Of a DNA stretch of 64,000 nt, positions 9,306 through 28,113 are shown in pieces. Within the stretch, counting starts at the first letter, position 1, and each line of letters starts with the position of its first letter. Source of the stretch: Nitrospirota bacterium (GTDB lineage: Bacteria; Nitrospirota; 9FT-COMBO-42-15; HDB-SIOI813). Position numbers and translations under genes: made by a program. The stretch spans positions 192,285-256,284 of the forward strand of contig JADZCV010000044.1 of assembly GCA_020851375.1 (NCBI GenBank). Direction: 5' to 3'. The notes under the pieces were generated by a model that was not told the origin of the DNA, searched no databases, and worked only from the letters and a program-made list of their open reading frames with translations.

Positions 9306-9320
9306 CCCAAGGCGGAATGC

Positions 9321-10391
9321 TTATTTTGAAAGAGTTCCTATCAAATGTCTATATTCGTAAATTAATCGTTTTCTATTCGTATCACTTTTCCATAGGATTT
9401 TTTGAGTAAGAGTTTTGGTCGTCGTCATCGGAACAACCAGGTCCGTATATGGAACATCAAGCACACGTTGTTCTGTCACATTATAATATCCACTTAAAAT
9501 CGAACTAACTGTCGTAAGTTGGCGATTGTGCTTCGAGCGATCCCTATTGTGGCTGTATATATTTGGACACTTCAGTTCAGCTAAACAGCGAATGTACGAA
9601 TCAACCTGTTCACCAGTCATCTCCTGAAAAGATGCAATGTTGATCGCAAGGTCAATCTTGGTAGTTTTTATTGCACTGAAAAAGAAATGGGGAAGAAAAA
9701 TAATATCATAGTTATTATATTCATCAAGCAAACTTTCTACAGGCTTATCACCATAAAAAAGAACTGAAGCGTCAGGAAATAGAGTCTTCAGATATACTCC
9801 AGAAAATAGGATCGTTTGAGGCAGATCAACAATAATATAGCATGTATTTGGAAACAGACTCTTGAACTGATAGGCAAATCCCCCCCATCCAGCACCAATC
9901 TCAATGATAACCTTTTTATCACCGACATTCTGCCGTAATGGAGCAAGTAATCCAGCCTTATTTAAAGCTAAAAACGATTCGTAAAATTTAAGCGTGTCCA
10001 GATTGATCAACATATCATCAATTAGATAACCAAATCCTCCAAGAAGTGGAGACTCCGGAACCAAAAGACCATTTGCGTCTTGCTCTCGCAATGCGTTTAA
10101 TTTCTTCTTAAAGGACTCTATTTGATGTGCATGATGCTCCCGATAGTCATAAGCCCGCAAACCGGTAAGATGATAACAATGTTCACGCAATTTCTGAATG
10201 ATCAATGGAGATGCATCAAACATGTAGTCAAATCCGGCCAATTCTTCTTCCCAATAATTGCTTGGCCGATTGCTTTGCTTTTGTTCCTCTTCAAGCAAAT
10301 AAAAGATATGGTCGCGAACATGAAGATAATTATGCCACCAACTCTCCTGTTTGTACCGCTCAATCTGCTCTTTAAATTGCAATCTATTCAT
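9321..10391 (-). CDS. SAM-dependent methyltransferase (possible sugar O-methyltransferase)
   Basis: IIEIGAGWGGFAYQF motif. Start set at internal ATG 10391 (MNRLQFKEQ) to avoid a 95-nt overlap with the acetyltransferase; the track start is 10478. Confidence 0.6.
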   Translation of the reverse strand: MNRLQFKEQIERYKQESWWHNYLHVRDHIFYLLEEEQKQSNRPSNYWEEELAGFDYMFDASPLIIQKLREHCYHLTGLRAYDYREHHAHQIESFKKKLNALREQDANGLLVPESPLLGGFGYLIDDMLINLDTLKFYESFLALNKAGLLAPLRQNVGDKKVIIEIGAGWGGFAYQFKSLFPNTCYIIVDLPQTILFSGVYLKTLFPDASVLFYGDKPVESLLDEYNNYDIIFLPHFFFSAIKTTKIDLAINIASFQEMTGEQVDSYIRCLAELKCPNIYSHNRDRSKHNRQLTTVSSILSGYYNVTEQRVLDVPYTDLVVPMTTTKTLTQKILWKSDTNRKRLIYEYRHLIGTLSK

Positions 10392-11052
10392 TTTGGAACC
10401 TATCGGGTACCCAATGTTTATTAACAAATTTATCAACATCGCTTGTAAGCAACATAGTCTCAAAGCGAATCTTTTCAATAGGCCAATTCCACCATTGGAT
10501 TTGTAATAGTTTTTTGATCATATCTTCGTCAAAACGGTATCTGATAATCTGTGCTGGATTACCGAGAACTATGGCGTATGGAGGTATATCTCCCCGAACA
10601 ACAGAAAACGCCCCTATCACAGCACCATCTCCAATTCTTGCTCCCACTATGCTTGCACCGTATGCAATCCATACATCGTTTCCAATTACAATATCGCCCT
10701 GTCTTTTTGGAATATCAGCACCAACCTCATTAAGAAGGAAATGTCTCATCGGATATGTTGTACCCGTAAGCTTATGATTTCCATTTACAAGAAATGTAAC
10801 ATTTTGAGCGATCGAGCAAAACTTGCCGATTCTTATCTGATCATCTGTATCATAGCCTCTAAACTCACAGGTCGGCTGGTAATAAGACCATGGACCGACA
10901 ACAACGTCGCACTTAATTCCCCTAAATTTCCGCTCAAATCCGATCTCGGCAAGTTTATTCTGAAAAATATCTTGCTTATCTGCCTTATGGTGCATAGACT
11001 CACCCAGAAGGCGGAGTTTAAGAATGGCGGCAGCACGATCTATCAGCCACAT
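10384..11052 (-). CDS. hexapeptide-repeat acetyltransferase, XAT (Vat/CAT-like) family, likely sugar O/N-acetyltransferase
   Basis: Left-handed beta-helix repeats IGNDVWIAYGASIVGARIGDGAVIGAFSVVRGDIPPYAIVLGNPAQIIRYRF; about 220 aa. Confidence 0.8.
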   Translation of the reverse strand: MWLIDRAAAILKLRLLGESMHHKADKQDIFQNKLAEIGFERKFRGIKCDVVVGPWSYYQPTCEFRGYDTDDQIRIGKFCSIAQNVTFLVNGNHKLTGTTYPMRHFLLNEVGADIPKRQGDIVIGNDVWIAYGASIVGARIGDGAVIGAFSVVRGDIPPYAIVLGNPAQIIRYRFDEDMIKKLLQIQWWNWPIEKIRFETMLLTSDVDKFVNKHWVPDRFQNE

Positions 11053-11129
11053 CTCAGATTACCTCATTTACCACAACATGGATATTCTCAATCTCGAAAT
11101 CAAAATGATTTAAATTAACCATATTATAT

Positions 11130-12407
11130 CTATCCCTCTTTTTCTGTCACCCAGCTCAATAATGGACGAATTACCCCAGGGACGTCTCCCCCCCAATCTC
11201 CACGGGCAGAATCACCAGTCATATTATCTACAATCTGGAAGGAAATTACATCTTTCTCATATACCCGCTTTGTCGTGGGACTAATTGTGCTAATACTCGC
11301 CAAGACAGAGATATTCCCTTCTGCCAAGAGGTCCCCGGGTATTTGTAACTTAGTTATATATTGTCCGGTAGGGCGTCGTTGTTTCCGCCAATTGGTATCA
11401 ACGTCTATAGCAGTAAACAAAACAATACCTTCCTGGTTGGTCAGACGAATAATCGGGGTTAGCACGGCACCGGATTTAAGAACATCGTAGCGCATTTCAA
11501 GCACAAACGGGTATCGGATGTCAATTGAATCACTGATCTTCCCCTCTTCAGTCTGAACGCTTACAGCCCTCAGCCGCACGACATCATCTCCAGGGGCTTT
11601 GTTCAGATCAGGCCATTCCCGCATTGCAGTGGTTCCCAGGTCAGAATGAAAATACGAAGTTACCACCTGGTGTGCAGGTCCATCCTGCAGCACGCGGCCT
11701 TCACCGAACATTAATGCACGCTGACACAAGCGCGTGACTGCCGGCATGCTGTGGGAGACAAAGAGCACTGTCCGGCCCTCTTTACTTACATATCCCATCC
11801 TGTCCATGCATTTCCGTTGAAAGCGAATATCCCCCACCGCCAGCACTTCATCCACAATCAGGATTTCCGGCTCCAGGTGGGCAGCCACTGCAAAAGCAAG
11901 CCGGACGTACATTCCGCTTGAATATCTCTTTACCGGTGTATCCAGGAATTTCTCGATCTCTGAGAAGGCGACAATCTCATCGAATCTCGCCTTGATCTCC
12001 TGTCTGCTCATGCCGAGGAGTGCGCCGTTCAGAAATATATTTTCCCTGCCTGTGAGCTCCGGGTGGAATCCTGTGCCGACCTCGAGGAGGCTTGCCACCC
12101 GGCCCCTCATGACGATACGCCCCGAGGTCGGTTCTGTGATCCGTGAGAGGATCTTTAACAGGGTGCTCTTGCCTGCCCCATTCCTCCCGATAATGCCTAT
12201 GACCTCACCCTCCTGAACGTTGAACGAGACGTCCCTGAGCGCCCAGATGGTGTTATCCTCCTCCCCTGTTCCCAGGGCCCGGACACCGCGCCTGAAAGGA
12301 GCTGCTATCGCCTGCATGATCTCATCACGCAAGCTCCCGTAGGCCTCCTTCCTGCCGATGGTATATTGTTTGGATATGTTTCGTATCTCGATTATGGGAC
12401 GGCTCAT
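11130..12407 (-). CDS. wzt: polysaccharide ABC exporter ATP-binding protein with C-terminal carbohydrate-binding extension (Wzt/TagH-like)
   Basis: Walker A GIIGRNGAGKSTLLKIL and ABC signature region YSSGMYVRLAFAVA, plus a roughly 170-aa C-terminal beta-rich extension typical of Wzt proteins. Confidence 0.8.
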   Translation of the reverse strand: MSRPIIEIRNISKQYTIGRKEAYGSLRDEIMQAIAAPFRRGVRALGTGEEDNTIWALRDVSFNVQEGEVIGIIGRNGAGKSTLLKILSRITEPTSGRIVMRGRVASLLEVGTGFHPELTGRENIFLNGALLGMSRQEIKARFDEIVAFSEIEKFLDTPVKRYSSGMYVRLAFAVAAHLEPEILIVDEVLAVGDIRFQRKCMDRMGYVSKEGRTVLFVSHSMPAVTRLCQRALMFGEGRVLQDGPAHQVVTSYFHSDLGTTAMREWPDLNKAPGDDVVRLRAVSVQTEEGKISDSIDIRYPFVLEMRYDVLKSGAVLTPIIRLTNQEGIVLFTAIDVDTNWRKQRRPTGQYITKLQIPGDLLAEGNISVLASISTISPTTKRVYEKDVISFQIVDNMTGDSARGDWGGDVPGVIRPLLSWVTEKEG

Positions 12408-13225
12408 ATCACATCCGCGAAATAGCGCTCAACCCGCCGGAAATAGAAGACGCCACCCAGGAATATCACGATCCCCGTTGCAGCAGATATCCCGAGTGAT
12501 ATCCACGGCACCGGCAGATGGCCGAGTACAGCGGGACGGAATGCCTCGATAACCCCGCTCATCGGATTTAGTGCAAGGATCCAGGCGTAACGTTCATCAA
12601 AGAGGCTCGTCGGGTAGATGACGGGGGTCACGAACATCCATATCTGTATCCCAAATGGTATGACATACTGAATATCCCTGTACCTCACATTGAGCGCCGA
12701 GAACCACATCCCGAATCCAACGGCGTTCATCATAGTGAGCACAACGAGTAAAGGCACGAGGAGTATAGTGACGCTCACCGCTATGCCGTAGTATATCATC
12801 ATCAATCCCAGGACAACGGCGGCAATGGCTAAATCCAGGATGGCGGCGATTGATGTGCTCGCGGGCATCAGTATCCTGGGAAAATAGATCTTGCTGACCA
12901 TGTCCGCACCGCTCACCACACTGTTTGTAGATTGAGAAAGCACGGAGGCGAAGTATTGCCAGGGTAGAAGCCCTATGTAAACAAAAATGGGATACGGGAC
13001 ACCATCAGAAGGGATTTTTGCAAGGCGGCCGAAGAGCAATGAGAATACCACCATGGTCATAACAGGCTGCAGGATCGCCCACATCACGCCGAGGGCCGTC
13101 TGCTTGTATTTGACCTTGACGTCCCGCCAGGCAAGAAAATAAAGGAGTTCACGGAACTTCCATATCTCCCGGAAGTTGACCGGCACCCAGCCTTTTTGGG
13201 GCTCTATGACGATCATCTCTTTCAT
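12404..13225 (-). CDS. wzm: ABC-2 type polysaccharide exporter permease (Wzm/TagG-like)
   Basis: 273 aa, 6 predicted TM segments, immediately upstream of and 4-nt overlapped with the Wzt gene. Confidence 0.8.
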   Translation of the reverse strand: MKEMIVIEPQKGWVPVNFREIWKFRELLYFLAWRDVKVKYKQTALGVMWAILQPVMTMVVFSLLFGRLAKIPSDGVPYPIFVYIGLLPWQYFASVLSQSTNSVVSGADMVSKIYFPRILMPASTSIAAILDLAIAAVVLGLMMIYYGIAVSVTILLVPLLVVLTMMNAVGFGMWFSALNVRYRDIQYVIPFGIQIWMFVTPVIYPTSLFDERYAWILALNPMSGVIEAFRPAVLGHLPVPWISLGISAATGIVIFLGGVFYFRRVERYFADVI

Positions 13226-14178
13226 CTTCGTTTCAGTTCATCCTCCATCATCATCTTCACCACGTCATGCATCCTGTATTTAGCCTGCCAGTGGAGCACC
13301 CTTTGGGCCTTTGCGGGATTGCCCCTGCCAGTGGCTATTTCTGTGGGCCTAATGAGTGACGGATCGGTTACCACATGGTCTTTCCAGTTCAGCCGGACAC
13401 ACCCGAAGGCCGTCTCCACAAACTCCTCCAGGCTGTGACTCTCCCCGGTCGCGATCACAAAATCTTCAGGCCGTTCCTGATGCAGCATCAGCCACATGGC
13501 CTCCACATACTCCGGAGCCCAGCCCCAGTCTCTGCAAATGGTAATATTGCCCAGACAGAGTTTCTCCCTGCTTCCAGAAGCGATCCGTGCGGCTGCTGAG
13601 ACGATCTTCCGGGTCACAAAACGCTCAGGCCTCAGGGGGGATTCATGGTTAAACAGGATGCCTGAAGAGGCAAAGAGGCCATAGGCCTCGCGGTAGTTGG
13701 CCACCTCCCAGAAGGCAGCGGCCTTTGCCACGGCATAGGGGCTCCTCGGGCGAAATGGGGTCGCTTCATCCGCCGCCTCTTCGCCGATATCGCCGAAGCA
13801 CTCGCTGGAACAGGCATTGTAGAGCCTGACCGGAAGCCCTATGAACCGGATCGCCTCCAGGAGGTTCAGTGTCCCGATACTGTTGCTCTCCAGCGTTTCC
13901 ACAGGCTGCTGAAAGGAGAGGCCAACGGAACTCTGTCCCGCCAGGTTGTATATCTCATCAGGCTTTATCCTGGCAATCGTCTGCAGCACGCTTCTAAAAT
14001 CGGTCAGGACCATAGACTCAAGCATCACCCGGTCCCGGATGCCAAGCCGGGCCAGATTGCTGAAACTTGCCATCTGTGCGTCACGCGACGTCCCGCATAC
14101 CTCGTAACCCTTGTTCAATAAAAGTTGGGCAAGATATGTCCCGTCCTGCCCGGATATACCGCAGATAAGCGCTTTCAT
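13222..14178 (-). CDS. gmd: GDP-mannose 4,6-dehydratase (short form)
   Basis: MKALICGISGQDGTYLAQLLLNKGYEV and YAVAKAAAFWEVANYREAYGLFASSGILFNHESPLRPERFVTRKI closely match Gmd signatures. Confidence 0.75.
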   Translation of the reverse strand: MKALICGISGQDGTYLAQLLLNKGYEVCGTSRDAQMASFSNLARLGIRDRVMLESMVLTDFRSVLQTIARIKPDEIYNLAGQSSVGLSFQQPVETLESNSIGTLNLLEAIRFIGLPVRLYNACSSECFGDIGEEAADEATPFRPRSPYAVAKAAAFWEVANYREAYGLFASSGILFNHESPLRPERFVTRKIVSAAARIASGSREKLCLGNITICRDWGWAPEYVEAMWLMLHQERPEDFVIATGESHSLEEFVETAFGCVRLNWKDHVVTDPSLIRPTEIATGRGNPAKAQRVLHWQAKYRMHDVVKMMMEDELKRR

Positions 14179-14879
14179 GAGTATCCCCCGTTGATAATGA
14201 CCTCGGCCATCCTGAAATCGAGCGGGGTATTGATGTCAACTGACTCCATCTCGTCCATTATGAAAGGGACGATGAGGTCGCCGGTCGGGGATTTCTTGTT
14301 CCGGATCGTAGCCGGTTTGGTAATATAGATGCTCGCGTTCTGGATGTAGACCGTCGGCAATAGTTGATATGAGAAGGTATGGATATTCGGGTCTTTTCCT
14401 TTGACGAAAGGCGTCAGATAACCCTCTTCCGTTACCCACATCTTGTACGGGTGTTCCGCGCACAGCCGGACCGAGCGGAGGGAGTCCGCCTCAGGATGCC
14501 GCAGCATCTCTTCGATAGCCCTGTCAATTGTCTCTGTTCTTCTGAACGGGGACGTGGGATAGAGGAGGACTATCAGGTCAGGCTCATAATTTTCGTTCTC
14601 AAGAAACCAGTCGAGGGCATGTTCGAAAAATTGCATCTCGGTCGAGTCGCTCTGTGAAATCTCAACCGGCCTCAGGAACGGGACATCTGCACCGTATTGC
14701 CTTGCAACGGATGCTATCTCTTCCGAGTCTGTAGTCACGACGATGCGGTTAATATGTCCGGACTTGGCAGCAGCCCCGATCGTATGGGCTATCAGAGGCT
14801 TGCCCCCGAGGGTACGGAGGTTTTTGTTGGCTACCCTCTTTGAGCCAGCTCGGGCTGGGATGAAGGCTAAGATGTCCAC
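14175..14879 (-). CDS. acylneuraminate cytidylyltransferase-family protein (CMP-nonulosonic acid synthetase, NeuA/PseF/LegF-like)
   Basis: ILAFIPARAGSKRVANKNLRTLGGKPLIAHTI N-terminus; 234 aa. GTG start at 14879 immediately after the repeat-borne SD. Confidence 0.75.
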   Translation of the reverse strand: MDILAFIPARAGSKRVANKNLRTLGGKPLIAHTIGAAAKSGHINRIVVTTDSEEIASVARQYGADVPFLRPVEISQSDSTEMQFFEHALDWFLENENYEPDLIVLLYPTSPFRRTETIDRAIEEMLRHPEADSLRSVRLCAEHPYKMWVTEEGYLTPFVKGKDPNIHTFSYQLLPTVYIQNASIYITKPATIRNKKSPTGDLIVPFIMDEMESVDINTPLDFRMAEVIINGGYS

Positions 14880-15106
14880 CTGAAAATAACTCCTATCTGT
14901 GTGTCATTCCCACGGAATGTGTCCCCGCAGGATTTAAGCGGGGAGTGGGAATCCAGAACCAGACCCAGGTCTGGATTCCCGCTTTCGCGGGAATGACGTT
15001 TTCATTAAATCCTGCAGGGACAGGTTCCGCGGAAATAACGTTTTTCATTACACCTTGTGAGCCCTGAGCTGTGGGCCTGCCGAACAGCCGAAGGGCTCAT
15101 CGCGCT
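14880..15106 (-). repeat. composite palindromic intergenic repeat, copy 1 (leader + hairpin + core + module C)
   Basis: Contains aggag-N10-GTG leader, ccccgcaggatttaagcgggg hairpin, nested palindrome gtcattcccacgg...gggaatccagaacc...ggtctggattccc...cgcgggaatgacg, and gtgagccctgagctgtgggcctgccgaacagccgaagggctcat palindrome. Confidence 0.85.
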
Positions 15107-17023
15107 TCACTTATAAATCCTCTCAGCCAGAGACGCCCCGTCCACCCGGTGATATTTCAGAACCTCCTGTGGCGTCCCCCAGACAGGGTAGTCGTCTATG
15201 GCGATTTTATCGTATCGCCTGCCTCTCAGTTTTTCTGATTCGTTCAATTTATTAAGCAGGGAATCGCCCAATCCGCCGCGGGAGAAGTGATTGTCCAGAA
15301 CATAAATAACGCGGCATCCGCCGACAACCCATGCAAACCATTCTTTGTCCACACGGTTCAGCCAGGGCATATTGACAACCTTCAGCGAAAAACCCTTCTC
15401 ACTCAATAACTCTGATGCAAGGAGCGCTTCATTTAACATCACCGGGCCGTAAGCAAAGAGCACGGCATCCCCTCCATCCATCAGGACAGTTCCCTTCCCC
15501 ATCTCAAACCTGTAATCTTCGGGAAGGTCTATCTTTCGCGGAGAGGGCGAGATGGCAAGTCTCATCATGCAGTTCTCCTTTGTCCTGTTGACGCTCCACT
15601 CAAGGACTGCCTTGGTCTCCTGACTATTGCCTGGTTCCATTATGACAAAGTTCGGCAGGGCAGCAAAAAGGGATATGTCCCTCAGGCTCTGGTGCGACTT
15701 GCCGGGGCCTGCAGGGATCAGGCCCGCGTAATGGCATACATAGATTATCTTTGTCCCCTCTGTAGCATTATTGTATATCTGCTCATTGGCCCGTGAGGAT
15801 AGAAAGACGCCGAATGAATTGACGACCGGTAGAAGGCCCTGCAACGCAAGCCCTCCGGCCATGGAGACCATGTCCTGCTCTGCTATCCCGTTCTCGATGA
15901 AGCGGTCCGGAAAGGCCGTCTCAAAGGGGCGCAGTCCGCAGTCAGCAGACAGGTCGGCATCAAGTACAACAATATCCTCTCTCCCCTTCCCTGCCTCTAC
16001 CAGCGCCTCACCGAAGGCAGTAACTACCTTCTCTGCAGTATCCTTTAGCCTGGTCCTGTTCTTCTCCCTTGTCTCAACCACTTCAAGGGACAGAGGTTCC
16101 ATGCTGCATTTTTTGAGATCCGTGTTGATCCTGTCGAGTACCTCCTGCAAGCCCCTTTCATAGGCATCATCATCCGGGGCGCCTGAATGCCAACGATAGA
16201 GTCCATTCCCCTCTTTCAATGAGGCCGGCCCCTCCATAAAGGAAATCCCCTTACCCTTGACAGTGTCTGCAATCAGGAGTTTTGGCTTATCTGAAATACT
16301 GCTCAACTTGCCAAACACCTTGTCCATGGCAGCAAAATCGTGCCCATCGCACCGCTCCACATGCCATCCAAAGATCTGAAACTTCTTCCCGATGTCGCCG
16401 AGGTTTATGATCTCTCCCACAGGCTTGTCTGTCTGAATCTTATTATGGTCAACGATCACCGTGATATTGCATATCTTCTGATGGGCTGTCGTCTGCAGGG
16501 ACTCCCAGATCTGCCCCTCCTGGAGTTCTCCGTCTCCGGTCATCACAAAGACTCTTCCCCCGGACCCCTGCATCTTCCTGGCCCAGGCCATCCCCTTCCC
16601 CTTCGATATCCCCATCCCGAGGGAGCCGGTGTTAGCCTCCATCCCAGGAATGCTCACATCAGGGTGGCCGTCTAATCCGCCAAGGCGCCTTAATTTTAGA
16701 AGGTGATCCCATGAGAGGATGCCGGCGGCAAAGAGTGCTGCATACTGACCTGGACAGTCGTGCCCCTTCGATGAATAATAGATGTCCCTGTCAGGGCTGC
16801 TGAGGCCTGCCTTCACTGTGTTCAGCTCGTCGAAGTAGAGCATCACGTTGATGTCCAGGGCGCTCAGGCTGGAGCCCAAGTGGCCCGAGCCTGCCTTTTT
16901 CACGGCTGACAGCGCATTGATACGGCACATGTCGCTGACAATCCGCAGTTTCCAAAACTTATCTGACCTTGAGTTCCATACCCGCTGAAATTCACTGTAT
17001 GGAATAAATGAAATGTTCAGCAT
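15107..17023 (-). CDS. transketolase-family protein, fused N-terminal (TPP-binding) and C-terminal (pyrimidine-binding) subunits
   Basis: SGHLGSSLSALDINVMLY and GDGELQEGQIWES (TPP site) in the N-half; FIENGIAEQDMVSMAGGLALQG in the C-half; 638 aa. Confidence 0.75.
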   Translation of the reverse strand: MLNISFIPYSEFQRVWNSRSDKFWKLRIVSDMCRINALSAVKKAGSGHLGSSLSALDINVMLYFDELNTVKAGLSSPDRDIYYSSKGHDCPGQYAALFAAGILSWDHLLKLRRLGGLDGHPDVSIPGMEANTGSLGMGISKGKGMAWARKMQGSGGRVFVMTGDGELQEGQIWESLQTTAHQKICNITVIVDHNKIQTDKPVGEIINLGDIGKKFQIFGWHVERCDGHDFAAMDKVFGKLSSISDKPKLLIADTVKGKGISFMEGPASLKEGNGLYRWHSGAPDDDAYERGLQEVLDRINTDLKKCSMEPLSLEVVETREKNRTRLKDTAEKVVTAFGEALVEAGKGREDIVVLDADLSADCGLRPFETAFPDRFIENGIAEQDMVSMAGGLALQGLLPVVNSFGVFLSSRANEQIYNNATEGTKIIYVCHYAGLIPAGPGKSHQSLRDISLFAALPNFVIMEPGNSQETKAVLEWSVNRTKENCMMRLAISPSPRKIDLPEDYRFEMGKGTVLMDGGDAVLFAYGPVMLNEALLASELLSEKGFSLKVVNMPWLNRVDKEWFAWVVGGCRVIYVLDNHFSRGGLGDSLLNKLNESEKLRGRRYDKIAIDDYPVWGTPQEVLKYHRVDGASLAERIYK

Positions 17024-17035
17024 TACACCTCCTCC

Positions 17036-18526
17036 TCAATCCTTCTTTTCAAATTGGACATTCTGGATCTTTGCACTGTAGTCCACATACAATGTCTTTA
17101 CCTCAGAGAAGGCCTCGATGGCCGCCCATCCGGACTCACGGTAACCCAATCCGGAATCCTTGAGCCCTCCGAAGGGCATGTGCGGCTCCCCGCCGAAGGT
17201 AGGGGCATTGATATAGCAGACCCCTGTGTCTGCGTCGTCAAAGAAAGAAAACGCGCGGTTTACATCTCTCGTAAAGAGTGAGGCCGAGAGTCCATAGGGG
17301 GACGCATTGTGGATCCTTATGGCATCCTCATAGGAGCCGGACTTAAAGAGAGTCAGCACAGGGCCGAAGACCTCTTCGCGAGCGATCTCCATCTCAGGGG
17401 TGACATTGTTTAAGACAGTCGGTGCGATGTAATACCCCTTGTCATACACTCCCCCTTTTAGCTGTTCTCCCCCGGTCATGACCTTTGCCCCCTCTTTTTT
17501 GGCACGCCCGAGATAACCCATAACCCGGTCAAACTGTTTCCTGCTGATAAGCGGGGTAACATCAGAGCCCGCATCACTCCCCGGGCCGACCTTTTGTTTT
17601 CCGGTCCGTTCAAGGAGCCTCTCAAGAAAGGCGTCATACACGCGTTCGTGGACGATCACCCGGCTGGTGGCTGTGCAGCGCTGACCGGAAATGGAGAATG
17701 CCCCGCAAACCACACCATCCACTGCGAGGTCTATATCTGCATCCTCCATGACAATCACTGCGTTTTTTCCGCCAAGCTCAAGCGATATCTTCGCCAGCCT
17801 TGCAGAGCAGTTTTTCCCTATGATCTTTCCGGTCGAACTTGAACCAGTAAAAGATATCATGGAGACATCAGGGTGGAGAGTCATGGCCTCTCCTGCTTCC
17901 TGACCAAATCCATGGATAAGGTTCAGGACGCCCCTCGGCAATCCGGCCTCTTCCAGGATCTTTACAAAATGCACAGCCGTTTCCGGTGTATTCTCCTCAG
18001 ATTTTAAAACAACGGTATTACCGCAGAGGAGTGCAGGAAATGTCTTCCAGGCGGTGATTGCCATCGGAAAGTTCCATGAGGTGATGATCCCAACCACGCC
18101 AACAGGATATCTCTTTGTCATTGCAAAGCGCTTCCTTAGACCTGAATGGGACGTCCTTCCGAAGAGCCTGCGCCCCTCGCCAGCAGCGTAAAAGGCCATG
18201 TCAATCCCGGACTGCACATCACCCATTGCGCCATTCACGGTCTTTCCATTCTCCCCTGAGATTACCTCCGCAAGCTCCCTCTTCCTGGAGGTCATGATCC
18301 GGCCCGCCTCATAGAGGATCTTCCCCCTCTCAGGTGGCGACACACCCTTCCACGCTTCAAAGGCAGACCGGGCGGCAGAGACCGCCCTGCCGACATCCTC
18401 CGCAGTTGAGCGCGGGAAGAGGCCGAGAACCTCATCAATATTGGATGGATTCCGGTTCTCGAAGGTCTGTCCTGAGACCGAGTCTACCCACTCTCCGTTG
18501 ATATAATTCTTAAAGGTAACTGTCAT
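17036..18526 (-). CDS. NAD(P)-dependent aldehyde dehydrogenase family protein
   Basis: LELGGKNAVIVMEDADIDLAV and catalytic-Cys region FSISGQRCTATSRVIVHE; 496 aa. Confidence 0.85.
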   Translation of the reverse strand: MTVTFKNYINGEWVDSVSGQTFENRNPSNIDEVLGLFPRSTAEDVGRAVSAARSAFEAWKGVSPPERGKILYEAGRIMTSRKRELAEVISGENGKTVNGAMGDVQSGIDMAFYAAGEGRRLFGRTSHSGLRKRFAMTKRYPVGVVGIITSWNFPMAITAWKTFPALLCGNTVVLKSEENTPETAVHFVKILEEAGLPRGVLNLIHGFGQEAGEAMTLHPDVSMISFTGSSSTGKIIGKNCSARLAKISLELGGKNAVIVMEDADIDLAVDGVVCGAFSISGQRCTATSRVIVHERVYDAFLERLLERTGKQKVGPGSDAGSDVTPLISRKQFDRVMGYLGRAKKEGAKVMTGGEQLKGGVYDKGYYIAPTVLNNVTPEMEIAREEVFGPVLTLFKSGSYEDAIRIHNASPYGLSASLFTRDVNRAFSFFDDADTGVCYINAPTFGGEPHMPFGGLKDSGLGYRESGWAAIEAFSEVKTLYVDYSAKIQNVQFEKKD

Positions 18527-18559
18527 GTCCTGACCTCCACTATGATGTTCACAGAAATT

Positions 18560-18645
18560 CCTTTCGCATCGTCATTCCCACGGAAGTGGGAATCCAGAAC
18601 TATGCCCGCATTCTGGATTCCCGCTTGCGCGGGAATGACGGGTCC
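18560..18645 (-). repeat. palindromic repeat, copy 2 (core module only)
   Basis: cgtcattcccacggaagtgggaatccagaactatgcccgcattctggattcccgcttgcgcgggaatgacg between the ALDH start and the SDR stop. Confidence 0.85.
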
Positions 18646-18647
18646 GC

Positions 18648-19457
18648 TCACCAGCAACTGAATCCACCGTCAATGATCAGGTTGCTACCTGTCATATAGG
18701 ACGAGGCGTCTGATGCAAGAAACAATATTGCACCGTTGTATTCATCCTGCCCCGCCATGCGGCCGAGGGGAACCTTGTTGCTGTAATTACTGAGAAAGGT
18801 CTCATCCTGATTGTTAAAGACACCACCGAGTGTCAGCGTATTCACCCGGACGCCGCTCTTCGACCAGTAGGTCGCAAGATACTTCGTAAGGTTGATGACT
18901 CCACCCTTGCTGACCGCATAGGTGACTGGTTTAAAAAACGGTTTTTCCCTGTACTCATATATCCTCTGGTCCGGCGACAGTATCCCGTAGATTGACGAGA
19001 TGTTGATAATTGACCCGCCGCCCGATTTTGCCATATGGCCTCCGATCACCTGACAGCACAGGAAGGTCCCTTTCAGGTTTACATCCATCATTATACTCCA
19101 CGATGCCTCGGGATAGTCCTCGAATGGGCCGGTCTCCTGCTCATCCGCGTTCGGCGGTGCGTCTATGGCGGCATTGTTGATCAGAATCCCGGGGTCCCCG
19201 AACGTGGATATGACCTTCTCCAATCCCTGTTCAATTGATTTCCTGTCAATGATGTTGACTTGTACCAGGAGCAGTTTGTCTGAAACAATCTCACTGAGCC
19301 TCCCCTTTGGATTGCCGGGATTGAGATCAAAAGCGGCCACAGAGGCGCCTGCGCCAAGAAGGGCGCGCACATATTCCCCACCGAGCTGCCCGGCCGCGCC
19401 GGTAACGATGGCTACTTTGCCGGAGAGGTTAAATAGCTTGTCAATTATTTGTTTCAC
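18648..19457 (-). CDS. SDR-family oxidoreductase
   Basis: GKVAIVTGAAGQLGGEYVRALLGAGASV Rossmann motif; YAVSKGG catalytic YxxxK; GTG start preceded by repeat-borne GGAG. Confidence 0.8.
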   Translation of the reverse strand: MKQIIDKLFNLSGKVAIVTGAAGQLGGEYVRALLGAGASVAAFDLNPGNPKGRLSEIVSDKLLLVQVNIIDRKSIEQGLEKVISTFGDPGILINNAAIDAPPNADEQETGPFEDYPEASWSIMMDVNLKGTFLCCQVIGGHMAKSGGGSIINISSIYGILSPDQRIYEYREKPFFKPVTYAVSKGGVINLTKYLATYWSKSGVRVNTLTLGGVFNNQDETFLSNYSNKVPLGRMAGQDEYNGAILFLASDASSYMTGSNLIIDGGFSCW

Positions 19458-19787
19458 CTGAAAATGCTCCTATTCACCCTTCATTCCTACCGAACCAGTC
19501 CCCGCATGATTTAAGCACCCGTCATTCCCACGGAAGTGGGAATCCAGAACCAGGCCCACGGTCTGGATTCCCGCTTACGCGGGAATGACGTTTTCATTAA
19601 CCCTGGTGAGCCCTGAGCTGTGAGCTTGTCGAACAGTCGAAGGGCTCATGACGGTTCACCTTAAAATCCCCGTTATTTACCGCAAAGGCACAAAGGACAC
19701 AAAGAATTATATTTCAGATACATCATCCAAAAATGCTCCTATATACCCGTCATTCCTGCCTTCGCGGGGATGACGTTTTCATGATAC
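19458..19787 (-). repeat. composite palindromic repeat, copy 3 (full element plus truncated second copy)
   Basis: Leader acctgaaaatgctcctat, hairpin, core gtcattcccacggaagtgggaatccagaaccaggcccacggtctggattcccgcttacgcgggaatgacg, module C gtgagccctgagctgtgagcttgtcgaacagtcgaagggctcat, a CAAAG-repeat tract, and a second short copy (aaaaatgctcctatatacccgtcattcctgccttcgcggggatgacg). Confidence 0.85.
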
Positions 19788-20306
19788 CTATTTTCCACCA
19801 GTTTTTACGTCAATAATAAAATCACAGAACTCTCTGATTGCACCGTGCCCCCCCATGGCGCTGGTGATATAGAGTGAGACGGCCTTGACAGAGGGATAGG
19901 CATCGGCAACACAGACCGGGAGGCCGACGATATTCAGACATTCTATGTCGTTGATGTCATTTCCCATGTAGGCGATGTTTTCGAGTGGGACTACCAGTCT
20001 TCGAGCCTCCTCTTTAAGCCTTTCCCCTTTATGGTCGCACCCCTGTATGCAGGGGATATCCAGCTTCCTGCACCTGGCGCTGACAACAGGATTCTTTTCC
20101 TTTGAGAGGACCAGGAGTTTTATTCCCGCGCGTCTGGCTGCTTCAAGGCCAAAACCGTCCGACCTGTTGCAAAAGACCCCCTCTGTCCCATCCTGCATCA
20201 CCAGGACGCGGTTATCAGTAAAAACACCGTCGAAATCAAAGACGATCATCTCCACCCTGCGGGCCAGATTGTACAGTCGCTCTCTGTCTTGCATATCGCT
20301 TGTCAT
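19788..20306 (-). CDS. HAD-superfamily phosphatase, KdsC family (nonulosonic acid 9-phosphate / KDO 8-phosphate phosphatase-like)
   Basis: MIVFDFDGVFTDNRVLV DxD motif, about 170 aa. Start set at internal Met near 20306; the track start 20345 overlaps the NeuB-like gene by 38 nt. Confidence 0.7.
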   Translation of the reverse strand: MTSDMQDRERLYNLARRVEMIVFDFDGVFTDNRVLVMQDGTEGVFCNRSDGFGLEAARRAGIKLLVLSKEKNPVVSARCRKLDIPCIQGCDHKGERLKEEARRLVVPLENIAYMGNDINDIECLNIVGLPVCVADAYPSVKAVSLYITSAMGGHGAIREFCDFIIDVKTGGK

Positions 20307-20307
20307 T

Positions 20308-21354
20308 TTACTCAAGGCACTCAAACGAAAGTGGCGCCTCCTCATCCAGGTCTACCTTCAGTTTCCTCCCTACCATATCTTTCGCAGCAAACGGGGGGAT
20401 GCCATTCGCCGGGGTCTTGAGGCATATGTCATCCCATGAGAGTATTGTTCCTGAGCGTAATGGCCTTGAGGCATAGACCCCCTTCCCCATCTTTTTCCGA
20501 GCCTCCATCTCAAAATCATAAATTATGCGGTTGCCGGTTCCAAGGGAAATATCCACACGCCTTAAGTCGCGGATCATCTTGCGCATACCCTCAGGTTCCA
20601 GTGAAAACTTGTGATCCGTTCCCTTCCATGCATGATTTAGTGTAAAGTGTTTCTCAACCACTGCAGCGCCGAGCATATATGCAATCACCGGCGCCACTAT
20701 CCCGTTATCATGCCCCGAGTATCCGATAATCGCCTCCGGAAATTCCCTCTTTAATGTCTCTATCACCCTTAAATTCAGGTCATGATATTCTGCCGGATAA
20801 CCTGCAATACAATGAAGGAGACAAAGTTTGTTATTATACTTGAGAATCGTCTCATAGGCTATTCTAATTTCTTCAAGATTTGCAGCGCCGGTAGAGACTA
20901 TCATCGGTTTGCCCAATCTGGCTATGTATTCTATCAGGGGGGTATTCGTTACATCTCCGGATGCAATCTTATAACTTGTAATCCCTATATCTTCAAGAAA
21001 ATCCACGCTCTTAAAATCAAATGCCGTAGACATGAATTCAACACTGTTTTCTTCTGCACATTTCTTTAGTGCTGCATACTCATCTCTTCCAAATTCAAGA
21101 AATTCCCTGTGCTCGCCATAAGTAGCCCCGTAACTGTTCTCATTATCATATGGCTTATTATAAAAGGCCTTCGTATATAAGGCCTTATTATCCCTTTTTT
21201 GAAATTTCACCGCCTGAACCCCGCATGATGCTGCAACTTTGACCATTTTCAATGCTGTTTCAAGATTTCCCTGATGGTTATGACCGATCTCAGCGATTAC
21301 ATAACAGGGACCATTGCCTGAAAGAACACTCTTCCCGAAATTAATTGTCTTCAT
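20308..21354 (-). CDS. nonulosonic (sialic-acid-like) acid synthase, NeuB/PseI/LegI family
   Basis: CYVIAEIGHNHQGNLETALKMVKVAASCGVQAVKFQKR is the NeuB TIM-barrel signature; a C-terminal SAF-like domain is present. Start probably MKTINFGK (21354) rather than the track start 21435. Confidence 0.8.
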   Translation of the reverse strand: MKTINFGKSVLSGNGPCYVIAEIGHNHQGNLETALKMVKVAASCGVQAVKFQKRDNKALYTKAFYNKPYDNENSYGATYGEHREFLEFGRDEYAALKKCAEENSVEFMSTAFDFKSVDFLEDIGITSYKIASGDVTNTPLIEYIARLGKPMIVSTGAANLEEIRIAYETILKYNNKLCLLHCIAGYPAEYHDLNLRVIETLKREFPEAIIGYSGHDNGIVAPVIAYMLGAAVVEKHFTLNHAWKGTDHKFSLEPEGMRKMIRDLRRVDISLGTGNRIIYDFEMEARKKMGKGVYASRPLRSGTILSWDDICLKTPANGIPPFAAKDMVGRKLKVDLDEEAPLSFECLE

Positions 21355-22372
21355 AAAATTCTCCATTAGATGTGTTGACCCTGCCAGGTCGTTTACATAA
21401 CCATCTTGACGCCACATAATATGCCATATAGTCACCTATCGTTGCCTCGCCTCCGAATTCCTCTCTGCGGGACAGCGGATGCGTCATCAGGTAAAACATA
21501 CGACGCGCCTCTTTTCTGTTTAGAGGATGGCGGTTGCGCACCGTCTGGGGAATTGCCCGCACGAAATCCATCAGCGACCGCAGAGGAAAGAGAAAACTCA
21601 GGCTTCGGACAGCAATTCCGGTGTACAGGATGACATTCATCATGCTCATCGCCATAGCTTCGAAAAAAGGCAAACTCTTCCAGATCCCTGTCAGGGTATT
21701 CCTAAATGAGAAGTAGTTAATGGTGCTACTGGTCTGCCTGTGCGGGTTCGCCTTGTGACATACGACAACATCAGCATAGTAGTATGTAAGGAGACCTGCC
21801 TTAGACATCCTGTAGGAGAAATCAAGCTCTTCACCCTGGCGGAAAAATGTTTCATCAAAATAACCGATCTTATCGAAAACATATTTTCTGAAGAATGTCG
21901 AGCTGCCATTGAAACCAAAGGCAAAAAAGGATTTGTCGTGATAAAGGTCCCTGTTATGTGCGAACATAAAACCCTCGTCCTCCCTGGTATGGAAATTGAT
22001 TATCTTTGCAGTAATAACATCCGCTCCTGTTTCCTCAAACTTTGAAGCCACCTTCAGAAATGCCTCTTCATCTGCAAGTTCAGCATCATCATCCAGTATA
22101 AATATGATCCCGCCTTTTGCCTCAGCAACCCCCTTATTCCTCGGGGCAATAACACCTGTATTTTTATCCATCCGGATATATCTGATATAAGGGTATTGCC
22201 CCTGATATTTCGAAATCAGATGCTCCGTACCATCCGAAGAATCATTGTCAATAACAATGACCTCCTTTTCAACACCTTTCTGACTTGCAACGGAATCTAT
22301 CGCACCGGCCAAATCATCCTTTCTGTTCCAGGTCCCTATAATGACACTAAACAATATTGAGTTTGATGGCAT
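21341..22372 (-). CDS. GT2 glycosyltransferase
   Basis: FSVIIGTWNRKDDLAGAIDSVASQKGVEKEVIVIDNDSSDGT. Confidence 0.8.
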   Translation of the reverse strand: MPSNSILFSVIIGTWNRKDDLAGAIDSVASQKGVEKEVIVIDNDSSDGTEHLISKYQGQYPYIRYIRMDKNTGVIAPRNKGVAEAKGGIIFILDDDAELADEEAFLKVASKFEETGADVITAKIINFHTREDEGFMFAHNRDLYHDKSFFAFGFNGSSTFFRKYVFDKIGYFDETFFRQGEELDFSYRMSKAGLLTYYYADVVVCHKANPHRQTSSTINYFSFRNTLTGIWKSLPFFEAMAMSMMNVILYTGIAVRSLSFLFPLRSLMDFVRAIPQTVRNRHPLNRKEARRMFYLMTHPLSRREEFGGEATIGDYMAYYVASRWLCKRPGRVNTSNGEFYEDN

Positions 22373-24311
22373 TAGGATCTTCGCCCCGGATAAATATCCT
22401 GCACCACATTTCCATTAAGATAATTTTATAGGAAAAGAATAAATCTTCCCCCCTGGAAATACTCCTGTCTATAAATGCCATTACCGCATCCCTTTTCACC
22501 ACGCCGCCTGAGACCAGGCAGCCGTCATGGCATAAACTGCCATACCTGCTGATCACGGCATTATACCAATCCTTTACAGGCGGCGTAAATCCCCTCTTCC
22601 GCCTGTTCAGTATTTCATCAGGCACAATACCCTTCATTGCATCAATAAACCATTTCTTATACCCCAGCTTATAGTCATCTTTATATGTCTTTCTCAATCC
22701 CATTATCAGTTCTACAAACCTGTAATCAAGAAAGGGGAGACGGAGTTCAACAGAAGAGGCCATACTCATTCTGTCCCCCAGGGCAACACAATTGGAATAG
22801 AGCCATGTCTGATACAGGATTTTGCAGATTTCAATCGGGACCTCATCCCAATCTTTGCCGGTAAAAAAGGAAAATAATTCTTCCTCCTGGATCTTCTGTT
22901 TGAACTCCTCCCTGTAAAGGGTTTCCAGATAACCAAAGGCTGATAAAAAATCATCATCATCATAAAGAATAAATGTGTCTGGTTTGGATAATACCTTGTC
23001 GTACCGAACCCTTATATTTTTAAAATTGTTAATCACAGAGATTACAGCCGGTATCATCTGCTGTCTTTTTCCGATATTTCTGATATCTGTATAAATATTT
23101 TTTATGAGTAACTGCAGGGATTGTACTTCATTATTGGAAATGGACTTTTGTTTCTGCAGGTTTTTTTCAACCGCTGTTGTAACCCCCAGATATCCCCAGA
23201 AAAGCTCATCCCCTCCTATGCCGCTCAATATAACCGGGACATTGTGCCTCCTGGCGAGTTTGTTGACAGAGTAATAACCAAAGGCTGCAATATCTGCAAT
23301 AGGATCATCCATGGCATAGACCATTTCAGGAAATGAGTTGACAAGGTCTTCTGTGTTTAATTCTATTTCATGATATGAAAAGCCAAGCTGATTTGATAAC
23401 CCCATGGCCATCTCTCTCTCATCGTTCTGCGGATGTCCCGGATATCCGACACTGAAGGCATGCATCTTTTCCTTGTAATATCTGGCGCCCAATACAGCAA
23501 TCGCGCTTGAATCTATACCACCTGATAAAGAAATGCCCACAGGCACATCGGACCTGATGATAATCCCCGACAGGTCTTCAAATGCCTCTCTGATGAGCTG
23601 GGATGGGTTTCCGGACACGGGTTTCACGTCTTCAAAATCCCAGTACTTTCTCAGTTCATATTCAAAGGGATTTAAAGAGACCATCATGTAATGGGCGGCA
23701 GGGAGTTTCAACACCCCCTCAATGCATGTATAGGGTTCCGGCACGTACTGATAGTGAAAGTACATATTTACTGCATCCGGATTTAACCTGACATCCTTTT
23801 CGCGCAGGCAGACCAGTAAAGATTTCATCTCTGATGAAAAAACGACCCCATCCTCTGTCTTATAGTAGTAGAGTGGTTTTTCGCTTAAACGATCCCTTGC
23901 AATAAAAAGCGTCTGTCTCTTTTTATCAAAGAGCGCAAAGGCGAACATACCCCTGAGGTTTTGAAGGCATGCCTCTCCTGATTCCTCGTAGAGATGCAGG
24001 ATCGGCTCACAATCACTTTGAGTTTTAAATTTGTGACCCCTGTTTTCCATCTCTTTGCGAAGTTCGATATAATTATAAATCTCGCCGTTAGCCACCAGCA
24101 CAAGGGATCCATCCTCATTGTACAGCGGCTGATTCCCGCCTGCGAGGTCTATTATCTTCAAACGCCGCATGGCAAGGGCAATATTCGTATCCTGATAAAA
24201 ACCCATGCTGTCCGGGCCGCGGTGAACCAGCGCATCATTCATCCTGTTCAGGATTGCGATATCCGCTGGCTTCAATGGATTGCTGCTTATCAGGCCTGTG
24301 ATGCCGCACAT
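22347..24311 (-). CDS. asparagine synthetase (glutamine-hydrolysing) family amidotransferase, polysaccharide-associated (WbpS-like)
   Basis: MCGITGLIS N-terminal nucleophile Cys2; SGGIDSS PP-loop; 654 aa. Confidence 0.8.
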   Translation of the reverse strand: MCGITGLISSNPLKPADIAILNRMNDALVHRGPDSMGFYQDTNIALAMRRLKIIDLAGGNQPLYNEDGSLVLVANGEIYNYIELRKEMENRGHKFKTQSDCEPILHLYEESGEACLQNLRGMFAFALFDKKRQTLFIARDRLSEKPLYYYKTEDGVVFSSEMKSLLVCLREKDVRLNPDAVNMYFHYQYVPEPYTCIEGVLKLPAAHYMMVSLNPFEYELRKYWDFEDVKPVSGNPSQLIREAFEDLSGIIIRSDVPVGISLSGGIDSSAIAVLGARYYKEKMHAFSVGYPGHPQNDEREMAMGLSNQLGFSYHEIELNTEDLVNSFPEMVYAMDDPIADIAAFGYYSVNKLARRHNVPVILSGIGGDELFWGYLGVTTAVEKNLQKQKSISNNEVQSLQLLIKNIYTDIRNIGKRQQMIPAVISVINNFKNIRVRYDKVLSKPDTFILYDDDDFLSAFGYLETLYREEFKQKIQEEELFSFFTGKDWDEVPIEICKILYQTWLYSNCVALGDRMSMASSVELRLPFLDYRFVELIMGLRKTYKDDYKLGYKKWFIDAMKGIVPDEILNRRKRGFTPPVKDWYNAVISRYGSLCHDGCLVSGGVVKRDAVMAFIDRSISRGEDLFFSYKIILMEMWCRIFIRGEDPNAIKLNIV

Positions 24312-25438: not shown

Positions 25439-25557
25439 CTGAAAATGCTCCTATATACCCGTCATTCCTGCGTAAGCGGGAATCCAGACCGATGGCCTGG
25501 TTCTGGATTCCCACTTCCGTGGGAATGACGTTTTCTCTGTCCCTTTTTCTTATCCAT
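25439..25557 (-). repeat. palindromic repeat, copy 4 (leader + core)
   Basis: ctgaaaatgctcctatatacccgtcattcctgcgtaagcgggaatccagaccgatggcctggttctggattcccacttccgtgggaatgacg. Confidence 0.85.
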
Positions 25558-27406: not shown

Positions 27407-27586
27407 TGATGGCCACCCATTCCCGTCATTCCTGACATCCCCGTCATTCCCGACATTCCCGACATCCCCGTCATTCCCGACATCCCCGTCATTCCTGACA
27501 TCCCCGTCATTCCTGACATCCCCGTCATTCCCGCGGAAGCGGGAATCCAGATCCCTGCATAAACCCTTCGGCAGTTTCCCGCCTTA
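27407..27586 (-). repeat. repeat copy 5: 18-bp tandem array plus terminal hairpin
   Basis: About 6.5 tandem units of ccccgtcattcc[c/t]gacat between about 27419 and 27540, then cccgcggaagcgggaatccag hairpin. The unit is an expansion of the cgtcattcc arm of the repeat family. Confidence 0.85.
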
Positions 27587-27871: not shown

Positions 27872-28113
27872 CTGAAAATGCTCCCATTTACCCGTCATTC
27901 CCACGGAACCTGTCCCCGCATGATTTAAGCGGGAAGTGGGAATCCAGATCCAGGCCTCGGTCTGGATTCCCGCTTTCGCGGGAATGACGTTTTTCTTGAT
28001 CATTTCTGGATTCCAGCTTCCGCGGGAATGATGTTTTTCTTGACCATTTCTGGATTTCCGCTTTCGCTGGAACGACGTTTTCGTGACACCTTGCGAGCTC
28101 GAGGCTCATGACG
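27872..28113 (-). repeat. composite palindromic repeat, copy 6 (leader, hairpin, core, two degenerate core half-copies, module C)
   Basis: ctgaaaatgctcccatttacccgtcattcccacggaacctgtccccgcatgatttaagcgggaagtgggaatccagatccaggcctcggtctggattcccgctttcgcgggaatgacg... then ttccgcgggaatgatg / ttccgctttcgctggaacgacg degenerate arms, then gcgagctcgaggctcatgacggttcacc. Confidence 0.85.

Follow-up and report, generated by a model that had tools for sequence, protein, structure and literature searches.

A NeuB–transketolase gene cassette conserved across bacterial phyla and its proposed CMP-activated acidic sugar

Six consecutive genes on the minus strand of a 64,000-nt stretch of a Nitrospirota genome (GenBank assembly GCA_020851375.1, contig JADZCV010000044.1, positions 192,285 to 256,284; hereafter the window, to whose numbering positions refer unless another locus is named) form an operon-like cassette that is conserved across bacterial phyla and lies beside genes of glycan assembly. 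The cassette (14175–21354) encodes a NeuB-family synthase condensing phosphoenolpyruvate (PEP), a KdsC/YrbI-type phosphatase, a short-chain dehydrogenase/reductase (SDR), an aldehyde dehydrogenase (ALDH), a fused transketolase (TK) and a cytidylyltransferase. It probably makes a previously undescribed acidic sugar, activated with cytidine monophosphate (CMP), for a surface glycan, and we tentatively propose that this product is CMP-3-deoxy-heptulosaric acid, formed via the successive action of NeuB, SDR, TK and ALDH. CMP-activated ulosonic acids, such as 3-deoxy-D-manno-octulosonate (Kdo) and sialic, legionaminic (Leg) and pseudaminic (Pse) acids, are key surface determinants, and to our knowledge none of the known pathways to them involves thiamine-dependent carbon–carbon chemistry.

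A six-gene unit conserved from Nitrospirota to Chloroflexota

Gene calls together with Pfam and NCBIfam matches confirm all six genes (Table 1), both the NeuB-, KdsC- and NeuA-like ones listed in a first-pass annotation of the window made from the sequence without database searches, and the fused TK, ALDH and SDR placed by it between NeuA and NeuB. The DNA fixes two starts, and the resulting products have the same lengths as in orthologues: for NeuB the initiation codon is the ATG at 21354, preceded by GGAG at a distance of 6 nt, and the open reading frame (ORF) of KdsC, extending to 20345, has an in-frame ATG at 20306, one base past the NeuB stop, which yields 172 aa as in the orthologues. 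The KdsC and NeuB genes abut, and the gap between TK and ALDH is 12 nt.

Neither a UDP-GlcNAc 2-epimerase nor any equivalog-level Pse or Leg enzyme is found within or adjoining the six-gene block, as had been noted from the sequence. Two DegT aminotransferases (26285–27406 and 33550–34686) and an NDP-sugar dehydratase/epimerase (28116–29117) belong to the same gene array, 5–13 kb upstream; all of them fall under the PseC, LegC and LegB cut-offs, the best DegT in the window having a PseC score of 244–259 against the cut-off of 423.5.

Scanning GTDB with a single genome for each species, we found 395 relatives of TK, and the best 80 loci of these 395 were examined. They come from Desulfobacterota, Chloroflexota, Nitrospirales, Planctomycetota, Omnitrophota, Acidobacteriota, Gammaproteobacteria and one archaeal metagenome-assembled genome (MAG). 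The relatives span 57–96% identity in many phyla, those at approximately 70% belonging to Thermodesulfobacteriota, Dehalococcoidia, Scalindua and others, and the carriers of the family (about 395 species representatives) include anammox Scalindua, sulfate reducers, Anaerolineae and Acidobacteriota.

Synteny was counted in 56 non-duplicate loci from at least 8 phyla, each with at least 5.5 kb upstream of TK. On the same strand and in fixed order, TK is accompanied by NeuB in 53 of these loci, by the cytidylyltransferase in 52, by ALDH in 51, and by all three jointly in 47. SDR (38 loci) and KdsC (25 loci, always with SDR) are accessory. Hence the TK–ALDH–SDR–NeuB synteny, which the first-pass annotation had suggested to seek in other genomes, is common, and its reservation that the three enzymes could be conserved elsewhere among unrelated neighbours fails in 55 of the 56 informative loci: TK, ALDH and SDR belong with NeuB and NeuA as partners dedicated to them. 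The sole informative locus where TK (67% identity) occurs without NeuB, ALDH and the cytidylyltransferase is from Desulfobacterales bin36 (CP070746; locus L012); its neighbours there are an FGGY sugar kinase and a decarboxylase dependent on pyridoxal phosphate, and one of the two families of approximately 470 aa described below is still present.

We observe three architectures: that of the window, ending with ALDH–TK–cytidylyltransferase, one with the cytidylyltransferase placed before TK, and the Anaerolineales type, NeuB–ALDH–cytidylyltransferase–TK, without SDR and KdsC. The order NeuB–(KdsC)–SDR–ALDH–TK–cytidylyltransferase is shared by a metagenome locus, the cultured Thermosulfuriphilus ammonigenes (CP048877, about 1,786,661–1,794,544; L004) and Ca. 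Scalindua. Conservation is highest for TK (57–72% identity across phyla), while NeuB falls to approximately 50% and ALDH to approximately 44%. In one orthologous operon (L001), tightly packed, the proteins are 76–90% identical to those of the window. No NeuC, Pse or Leg enzymes travel with the cassette in the related loci surveyed. A complete cassette of the window type, with the KpsC-like gene described below, is also present in the Methanobacteriota archaeon MAG JBDRAY010000154 (L057; 50–72% identity), which points to horizontal transfer to an archaeon or else to erroneous binning.

Widespread as it is in environmental bacteria, the cassette is uncurated: none of the curated models describes it, and full-text literature searches (transketolase or ALDH with NeuB, nonulosonic or pseudaminic; heptulosaric or ulosaric) returned no description of it in the library searched.

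Family affinities and active sites of the cassette enzymes

All six enzymes score below the curated thresholds of characterised equivalogs. The type of NeuB was judged from score thresholds and PDB ranks. The window protein matches Pfam NeuB (278 bits) and SAF (23.9 bits), and scores 305.9 bits with NeuB_NnaB (TIGR03569; cut-off 399.65) and 239 bits with PseI (TIGR03586; cut-off 340.25), so by these scores it is neither an NnaB nor a PseI equivalog; an Anaerolineales cassette NeuB reaches 316.6 bits with NeuB_NnaB. We further compared 13 active-site residues of NmNeuB (PMC6795526) across 62 cassette NeuBs and found 10 of them kept. Residues typical of the superfamily are conserved in 60–62 of the proteins, namely His215 and His236 (metal), and Glu25, Gln55, Thr110, Lys129, Ser213 and Glu234 (PEP/sugar), and the hexose-contacting Gln55, Asn74, Tyr186 and Asp247 are retained. 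On the contrary, Arg314, which positions the N-acetyl group, is Thr in the window and Ser or Thr in 60 of the 62, and Phe288 is Met in the window and in 61 of the 62. In the part of PMC6795526 that cites Joseph et al. (2013), Arg314, from the AFP-like domain, is described as contacting ManNAc and essential for catalysis. The cassette NeuB site thus looks like a hexose-type one without the acetamido pocket.

The cytidylyltransferase matches CTP_transf_3 (87.7 bits, E = 1.3e-24); its best NCBIfam model is PseF (TIGR03584; 146.1 bits, cut-off 205.7), and KdsB models give at most 62 bits. The KdsC-like protein stays below the KdsC equivalog (117.1 bits, cut-off 208) and the model of phosphatases of 3-deoxy-D-glycero-D-galacto-nonulosonate (Kdn) 9-phosphate (88.6 bits, cut-off 180), and narrowly misses the threshold of the YrbI subfamily TIGR01670 (102.5 bits, cut-off 106.95). 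KdsC-type phosphatases act on omega-phosphates of ulosonates.

SDR matches adh_short_C2 (142 bits) and, in NCBIfam, PRK09186 (171 bits), gluconate 5-dehydrogenase (156), D-mannonate oxidoreductase (149.5), KduD (122.5) and PtmA (115), all sub-cut-off. Gluconate 5-dehydrogenase, D-mannonate oxidoreductase and KduD each generate a hydroxyacetyl end, HOCH2–C(=O)–, on a sugar acid. ALDH is nearest to the alpha-ketoglutaric semialdehyde dehydrogenase GucD (NF042993; 541.5 bits, cut-off 770) and 2,5-dioxovalerate dehydrogenase (NF052305; 506.8 bits, cut-off 750), and the ALDHs of the other two architectures have the same two best matches in the same ranking. Both families take 2-keto-3-deoxy acids as substrates, acting at the omega-aldehyde.

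TK scores 392.4 bits with the equivalog NF004559 (cut-off 488), and its best PDB match is human TK (3.6e-69), the split TK of Carboxydothermus being also among the best. It has the features of the superfamily: three domains, the GDG–N motif for metal and thiamine diphosphate (ThDP), the activating Glu, and the catalytic His for the donor C1 hydroxyl. Aligning 80 cassette TKs to human TK (human numbering, active-site set from PMC8016368), we find His37, His77, Arg101, His110, Asp155, Asn185, Lys244, His258 and Glu366 invariant in all 80; Arg100/101 are among the invariant residues of the pyrophosphate-binding (PP) domain and cofactor site. At the same time, the residues binding the sugar phosphate or selecting stereochemistry are altered in 78–80 of the 80 (Arg318 deleted, Ser345Asp, His416Tyr, Asp424Pro), the position of Arg474 is occupied by Pro in as many, and Lys260 is replaced by Gly in nearly every protein. 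The changed substrate binders belong to the side of the site contributed by the other subunit. This loss argues against a role in the pentose phosphate pathway and for a bulky, non-phosphorylated substrate; judging by its residues, the cassette TK is not a pentose-phosphate transketolase. Given the remodelled site, TK can sensibly be read as performing a non-canonical two-carbon transfer in an ulosonic-acid pathway.

A search of a plasmid collection with TK gave matches of at most 43% identity, rhizobial plasmids having only unrelated split TKs (approximately 30%). One match is on the linear plasmid NZ_CP108509 of Streptomyces sp. NBC_01237 (L088, 5105–12419), where a NeuB (48% identity), an SDR (46%) and a TK (43%) precede an RmlD-like gene, a HAD phosphatase and, at the place of ALDH, a class III aminotransferase. 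This TK has the same active-site signature as the cassette TKs. The locus, without ALDH and cytidylyltransferase, adjoins hydroxyphenylglycine-type genes and is probably a natural-product pathway. The aminotransferase in the ALDH position fits an aldehyde as the TK product.

The proposed route and competing explanations

In the route that we tentatively favor, TK acts after NeuB. NeuB would condense PEP with a non-acetamido hexose 6-phosphate, e.g., mannose 6-phosphate, to a Kdn-like 3-deoxy-nonulosonate 9-phosphate, and KdsC would take off the 9-phosphate, leaving a free C9 hydroxymethyl. SDR would oxidise the C8 hydroxyl, creating the end HOCH2–C(=O)–CHOH–, that is, the transketolase donor motif; in the D-glycero-D-galacto case this end, read from C9, would be D-threo, like that of xylulose 5-phosphate or fructose 6-phosphate. 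TK would then cut between C7 and C8, the two-carbon ketol passing to an acceptor aldose or being released, and a C7 aldehyde would remain, the same as obtained from sialic acids by mild periodate. ALDH would irreversibly oxidise it to 3-deoxy-hept-2-ulosaric acid (C7H10O8, the class of 3-deoxy-heptulosaric acid, Dha), pulling the reversible TK step forward. The cytidylyltransferase would form the CMP-sugar, the KpsC-like transferase would add the sugar to the glycan, and the neighbouring ABC transporter would export the latter. Every gene would be used once, near the gene order.

Action of SDR and TK on a dephosphorylated nonulosonate would explain both why the phosphate must go and why TK needs no phosphate site. 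The relatives of ALDH, dehydrogenases of 2-keto-3-deoxy-acid semialdehydes, and those of SDR fit removal of two carbons followed by oxidation, leading to a shorter, dicarboxylic ulosaric acid. The first-pass annotation had suggested a two-carbon transfer dependent on thiamine pyrophosphate and an aldehyde oxidation for an unusual ulosonic acid or a higher-carbon sugar; the remodelled TK site speaks for the former part, while the higher-carbon sugar is less likely given the ALDH and SDR relatives.

Several points weigh against this route. We know of no transketolase that has an ulosonic acid as the donor. Beyond the family assignments, the steps are what we infer from sequence, the substrate of NeuB solely from the lost acetamido contacts and the absence of amino-sugar genes, and the acceptor of the two-carbon unit is only a proposed aldose, unless the ketol is released. 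In TK, a conserved Arg (R496 in the window, present in 74 of 80 proteins) stands three residues past the position of human Arg474, in a lengthened loop, and to judge from the alignment might still bind an anion. SDR and KdsC are missing in 16 Anaerolineales loci, and ALDH in three loci; a search of the SDR-less Anaerolineales loci for a replacement oxidoreductase turned up nothing beyond a trio of GFO/IDH/MocA, acetyltransferase and DegT proteins, as is typical for another amino sugar. No variant-specific TK substitutions are seen, SDR-less and ALDH-less loci included, so either unlinked enzymes supply the SDR and ALDH steps in such loci, or SDR does not act upstream of TK.

The latter points are met better by the reverse order, TK before NeuB, which we regard as rather unlikely, and which would give the same product class, heptulosaric acid. 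Here the TK substrate would be an aldonate or ketouronate ending in a hydroxyacetyl group, its cleavage would give a four-carbon uronate semialdehyde, and NeuB would condense it with PEP to 3-deoxy-heptulosaric acid, ALDH merely clearing the released glycolaldehyde. The candidate substrates are 5-keto-gluconate, made by KdsC and SDR from 6-phosphogluconate, and fructuronate or tagaturonate from uronate catabolism; a D-tagaturonate start would yield the true D-lyxo Dha. This order explains the sameness of TK in the SDR-less variants, as well as why NeuB, TK and the cytidylyltransferase are near-universal and yet SDR, KdsC and even ALDH can be missing. Moreover, the best characterised relatives of SDR are gluconate 5-dehydrogenase and mannonate oxidoreductase, and the Asp that in canonical TKs enforces the 4R configuration of the donor is Pro in the cassette TK. 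There is also a precedent in the aminoshikimate pathway to 3-amino-5-hydroxybenzoate (AHBA), where iminoerythrose 4-phosphate is released from aminofructose 6-phosphate by a transketolase, to be condensed with PEP by a homologue of the 3-deoxy-D-arabino-heptulosonate 7-phosphate (DAHP) synthase. However, a carboxylate in place of the phosphate of fructose 6-phosphate should preserve the Arg/His/Ser anion site, and this site is dismantled. NeuB retains its hexose contacts (Gln55, Asn74, Tyr186, Asp247), the KdsC family acts on ulosonate omega-phosphates and its gene is coupled to NeuB, and the nearest families of ALDH take keto-acid semialdehydes, not glycolaldehyde.

Three further explanations dispense with shortening of the chain. 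It is improbable that SDR and ALDH simply oxidise C9 of a Kdn-like sugar to a nonulosaric acid, with TK having a supply or unrelated role. The two would make a plausible alcohol–aldehyde–acid pair, and NeuB, KdsC and the CMP-transferase alone constitute the known Kdn route, but the relatives of SDR oxidise secondary omega-1 alcohols rather than primary ones, ALDH is kept where SDR is missing, and TK, which surpasses the other members in conservation, hardly ever occurs apart from NeuB; its loss of sugar-phosphate residues makes precursor supply unlikely. Chain extension, raised in the first-pass annotation, whereby TK would add a two-carbon ketol to a sugar aldehyde and yield a C10–C11 ulosonic acid, draws on the reversibility of transketolase and on the intact catalytic His pair that binds the donor C1 hydroxyl. 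We consider it improbable too, as the ketol-addition product has no aldehyde, leaving the near-universal ALDH without a substrate; the aminotransferase in its place in Streptomyces also needs an aldehyde or ketone product, and no isomerase or reductase for the new ketose end co-occurs with the cassette. Finally, TK, ALDH and SDR could be housekeeping genes landed with repeats in a cluster making ordinary Neu5Ac, Leg, Pse or Kdn, as repeats flank several of the genes and the Desulfobacterales locus has TK without the others. This is hardly credible in view of the synteny in 47–53 of the 56 loci across phyla, none with the repeats, the compactness of the close orthologous operon (L001), the TK without a canonical phosphate site, and the unmet equivalog thresholds of NeuB, PseI and PseF.

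If the proposed chemistry is right, the cassette would define a new class of acidic sugars of bacterial glycans, account for the "transketolase / DXP synthase" annotations adjoining neuB, provide testable candidate enzymes for the unsolved biosynthesis of Dha and its activated form, and contain a transketolase for non-phosphorylated sugar acids, usable in biocatalysis. It would also, as we cautiously suggest, provide ulosaric (dicarboxylic 2-keto-3-deoxy) sugars such as Dha with their first biosynthetic route, in which TK would serve as two-carbon scissors on a sugar acid, with aldehyde oxidation and CMP activation to follow; we know of no role of this kind for a transketolase in the biosynthesis of glycan precursors.

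Genomic surroundings and comparison with known systems

Table 1. Cassette genes, neighbouring glycan genes and repeat elements of the window.
Feature	Product length	Position	Strand	Remarks
NeuB-family PEP-condensing synthase	348 aa	20308–21354	–	TIM barrel and SAF/AFP-like domain; Pfam
KdsC/YrbI-type HAD phosphatase	172 aa	19788–20306	–	accessory cassette member
Classical SDR oxidoreductase	269 aa	18648–19457	–	accessory cassette member
NAD(P)-dependent aldehyde dehydrogenase (ALDH)	496 aa	17036–18526	–	Aldedh, 561 bits
Fused short-type transketolase (TK)	638 aa	15107–17023	–	Transketolase_N, Transket_pyr and Transketolase_C
CMP-ulosonic acid synthetase (NeuA/PseF/KdsB family cytidylyltransferase)	234 aa	14175–14879	–	CTP_transf_3
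KpsC/KpsS-like glycosyltransferase	551 aa	6699–8354	–	PF05159, 23.6 bits (cut-off 20)
ABC-2 exporter ATPase, Wzt/TagH-like		11130–12407	–	Pfam ABC_tran; about 170 extra C-terminal residues
ABC-2 exporter permease		12404–13225	–	Pfam ABC2_membrane
Repeat element, CMP-transferase/TK junction		14880–15106		ATTCCC-N8-GGGAAT palindromes and a second shared segment
Repeat element, ALDH/SDR junction		18527–18647		palindromes 18574–18593 and 18617–18636
Repeat elements, SDR/KdsC junction		19458–19787		palindromes 19524–19543 and 19567–19586; degenerate copy 19752–19771

The likely transferase for the CMP-sugar of the cassette is the KpsC/KpsS-like protein (Table 1), an assignment suggested by the family match and a structural model. 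Homologues with 45–58% identity are found in 16–19 related loci, mostly directly after the cassette; PF05159 is matched by 11 of 15 members of this family, and His374–Pro375 is invariant. Sequence-level searches of PDB with this protein gave no match. For an AlphaFold2 model built with database homologues (predicted local distance difference test, pLDDT, 90.7), the best PDB folds are the KpsC beta-Kdo transferases 6mgb, 8fuw, 8fux and 6mgc (E about 6e-8, template-modelling score TM(target) 0.55–0.57). In addition, two families of approximately 470 aa without Pfam or PDB match are encoded directly downstream of TK in 18 and 19 loci (e.g., L039 14883–16259, L054 11981–13396, L019 14689–15703, L012 12145–13548). 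For the most part, a locus with either family lacks both the other one and the KpsC-like protein, so these families may act as its substitutes in transferring the same CMP-sugar.

The ABC exporter is the likely export route of the glycan; its homologues are present in 15–17 related loci, and NCBIfam Wzt/RfbE and TagH matches of the ATPase are confined to residues 47–257 of 425. The cassette itself is situated in a long single-strand glycan array (8361–14178 and 21341–37177), encoding a GDP-mannose 4,6-dehydratase, the Wzm/Wzt-like exporter, a Vat-like acetyltransferase, a NanM-family sugar O-methyltransferase, several GT2 and GT4 enzymes, an AsnB-like amidotransferase, two DegT aminotransferases and a C-methyltransferase. 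This content suggests a heavily modified polysaccharide whose export depends on the ABC transporter; the new sugar could be its cap or linker. An ORF of 1779 aa (56163–61502, minus strand) is located near the window end.

The first-pass annotation had placed repeats at each junction of the module. They are present at three junctions (Table 1) and not at the other two of the five. The segment 15042–15120 is approximately 84% identical to 19591–19669, and a 71-nt unit at the ALDH/SDR junction is 92% identical to 19520–19590. The palindrome ATTCCC-N8-GGGAAT, for which chance predicts 0.39 copies, has 12 in the window, including sites away from the cassette (25464–25526, 27527–27546, 27966–28029, 50201–50263), and is absent from all 87 related loci examined. 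We therefore reject the repeats as a part of the module: they are a lineage-specific, window-wide intergenic family that spread into the gene junctions of an operon already in place, and incidental to the pathway. Short-read assemblies of identical sequence (L087) break at these elements. An Rfam scan of 14000–22000 found no RNA family, and a promoter and terminator scan, no excess over chance, the palindromes being terminator-like on the antisense strand only. A GIY-YIG nuclease ORF of 139 aa (27584–28003) is located between the copies 27527–27546 and 27966–28029, and with these flanking repeats may form a small mobile unit linked to the repeat family. The often paired, intergenic ATTCCC-N8-GGGAAT core presumably resembles the Neisseria dRS3/NIME repeats, whose units flank intergenic mosaic segments in Neisseria; the host here belongs to Nitrospirota, and the likeness is one of pattern only.

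Among known systems, the closest to the putative transferase are the retaining beta-Kdo transferases KpsC/KpsS, with which it shares the PF05159 match above the threshold, the predicted fold that most resembles theirs and the invariant His–Pro, as in CMP-sugar-dependent enzymes, but it has approximately 12% identity to the solved KpsC domains and is about 230 residues longer than one module. The cassette TK has the three-domain fold and the ThDP, metal and catalytic His residues in common with canonical TKs (human TKT, E. coli TktA) and with split or short-type ones, and differs from canonical TKs by the family-wide replacement of sugar-phosphate and stereo-selecting residues, Lys260Gly included, and by its context, NeuB and the CMP-transferase instead of the pentose phosphate pathway.

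Two pathways are similar in logic. The AHBA transketolase is likewise a dedicated TK making the aldehyde partner of a PEP-condensing synthase, and in the synthesis of 8-amino-Kdo in Shewanella (KdnA/KdnB) the free ulosonic acid first gains a tail aldehyde by oxidation, on which a second enzyme acts prior to CMP activation. Partner families and products are different, and neither system joins NeuB with ALDH.

The predicted product belongs to the class of Dha, a seven-carbon, Kdo-like 2-keto-3-deoxy diacid whose transfer requires an activated donor and an enzyme of the Kdo-transferase type. In bacteria Dha is known from the lipopolysaccharide (LPS) core of Acinetobacter haemolyticus (NCTC 10305 is a Dha-containing strain) and from LPS cores of Rhizobiaceae (PMC4019464, PMC5713287), and it is also reported from plants and algae; its biosynthesis and activated form are listed as unknown (PMC3355719, PMC12168206). 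Dha has the D-lyxo configuration, whereas a Kdn-type precursor would give L-arabino.

The core of NeuB, KdsC and CMP-transferase resembles the Kdn route. In Bacteroides thetaiotaomicron it is comprised of Kdn-9-phosphate synthase, Kdn-9-phosphate phosphatase (the family NF058599 of NCBIfam) and CMP-Kdn synthetase. Common to both are a NeuB-type synthase, in the cassette apparently built for a non-acetamido sugar, a KdsC-type HAD phosphatase, a CMP-transferase, and the absence of amino-sugar-forming enzymes. By comparison, no cassette protein is at the equivalog score, three extra dedicated enzymes (SDR, ALDH and TK) are present, and the predicted product is two carbons shorter than Kdn and dicarboxylic.

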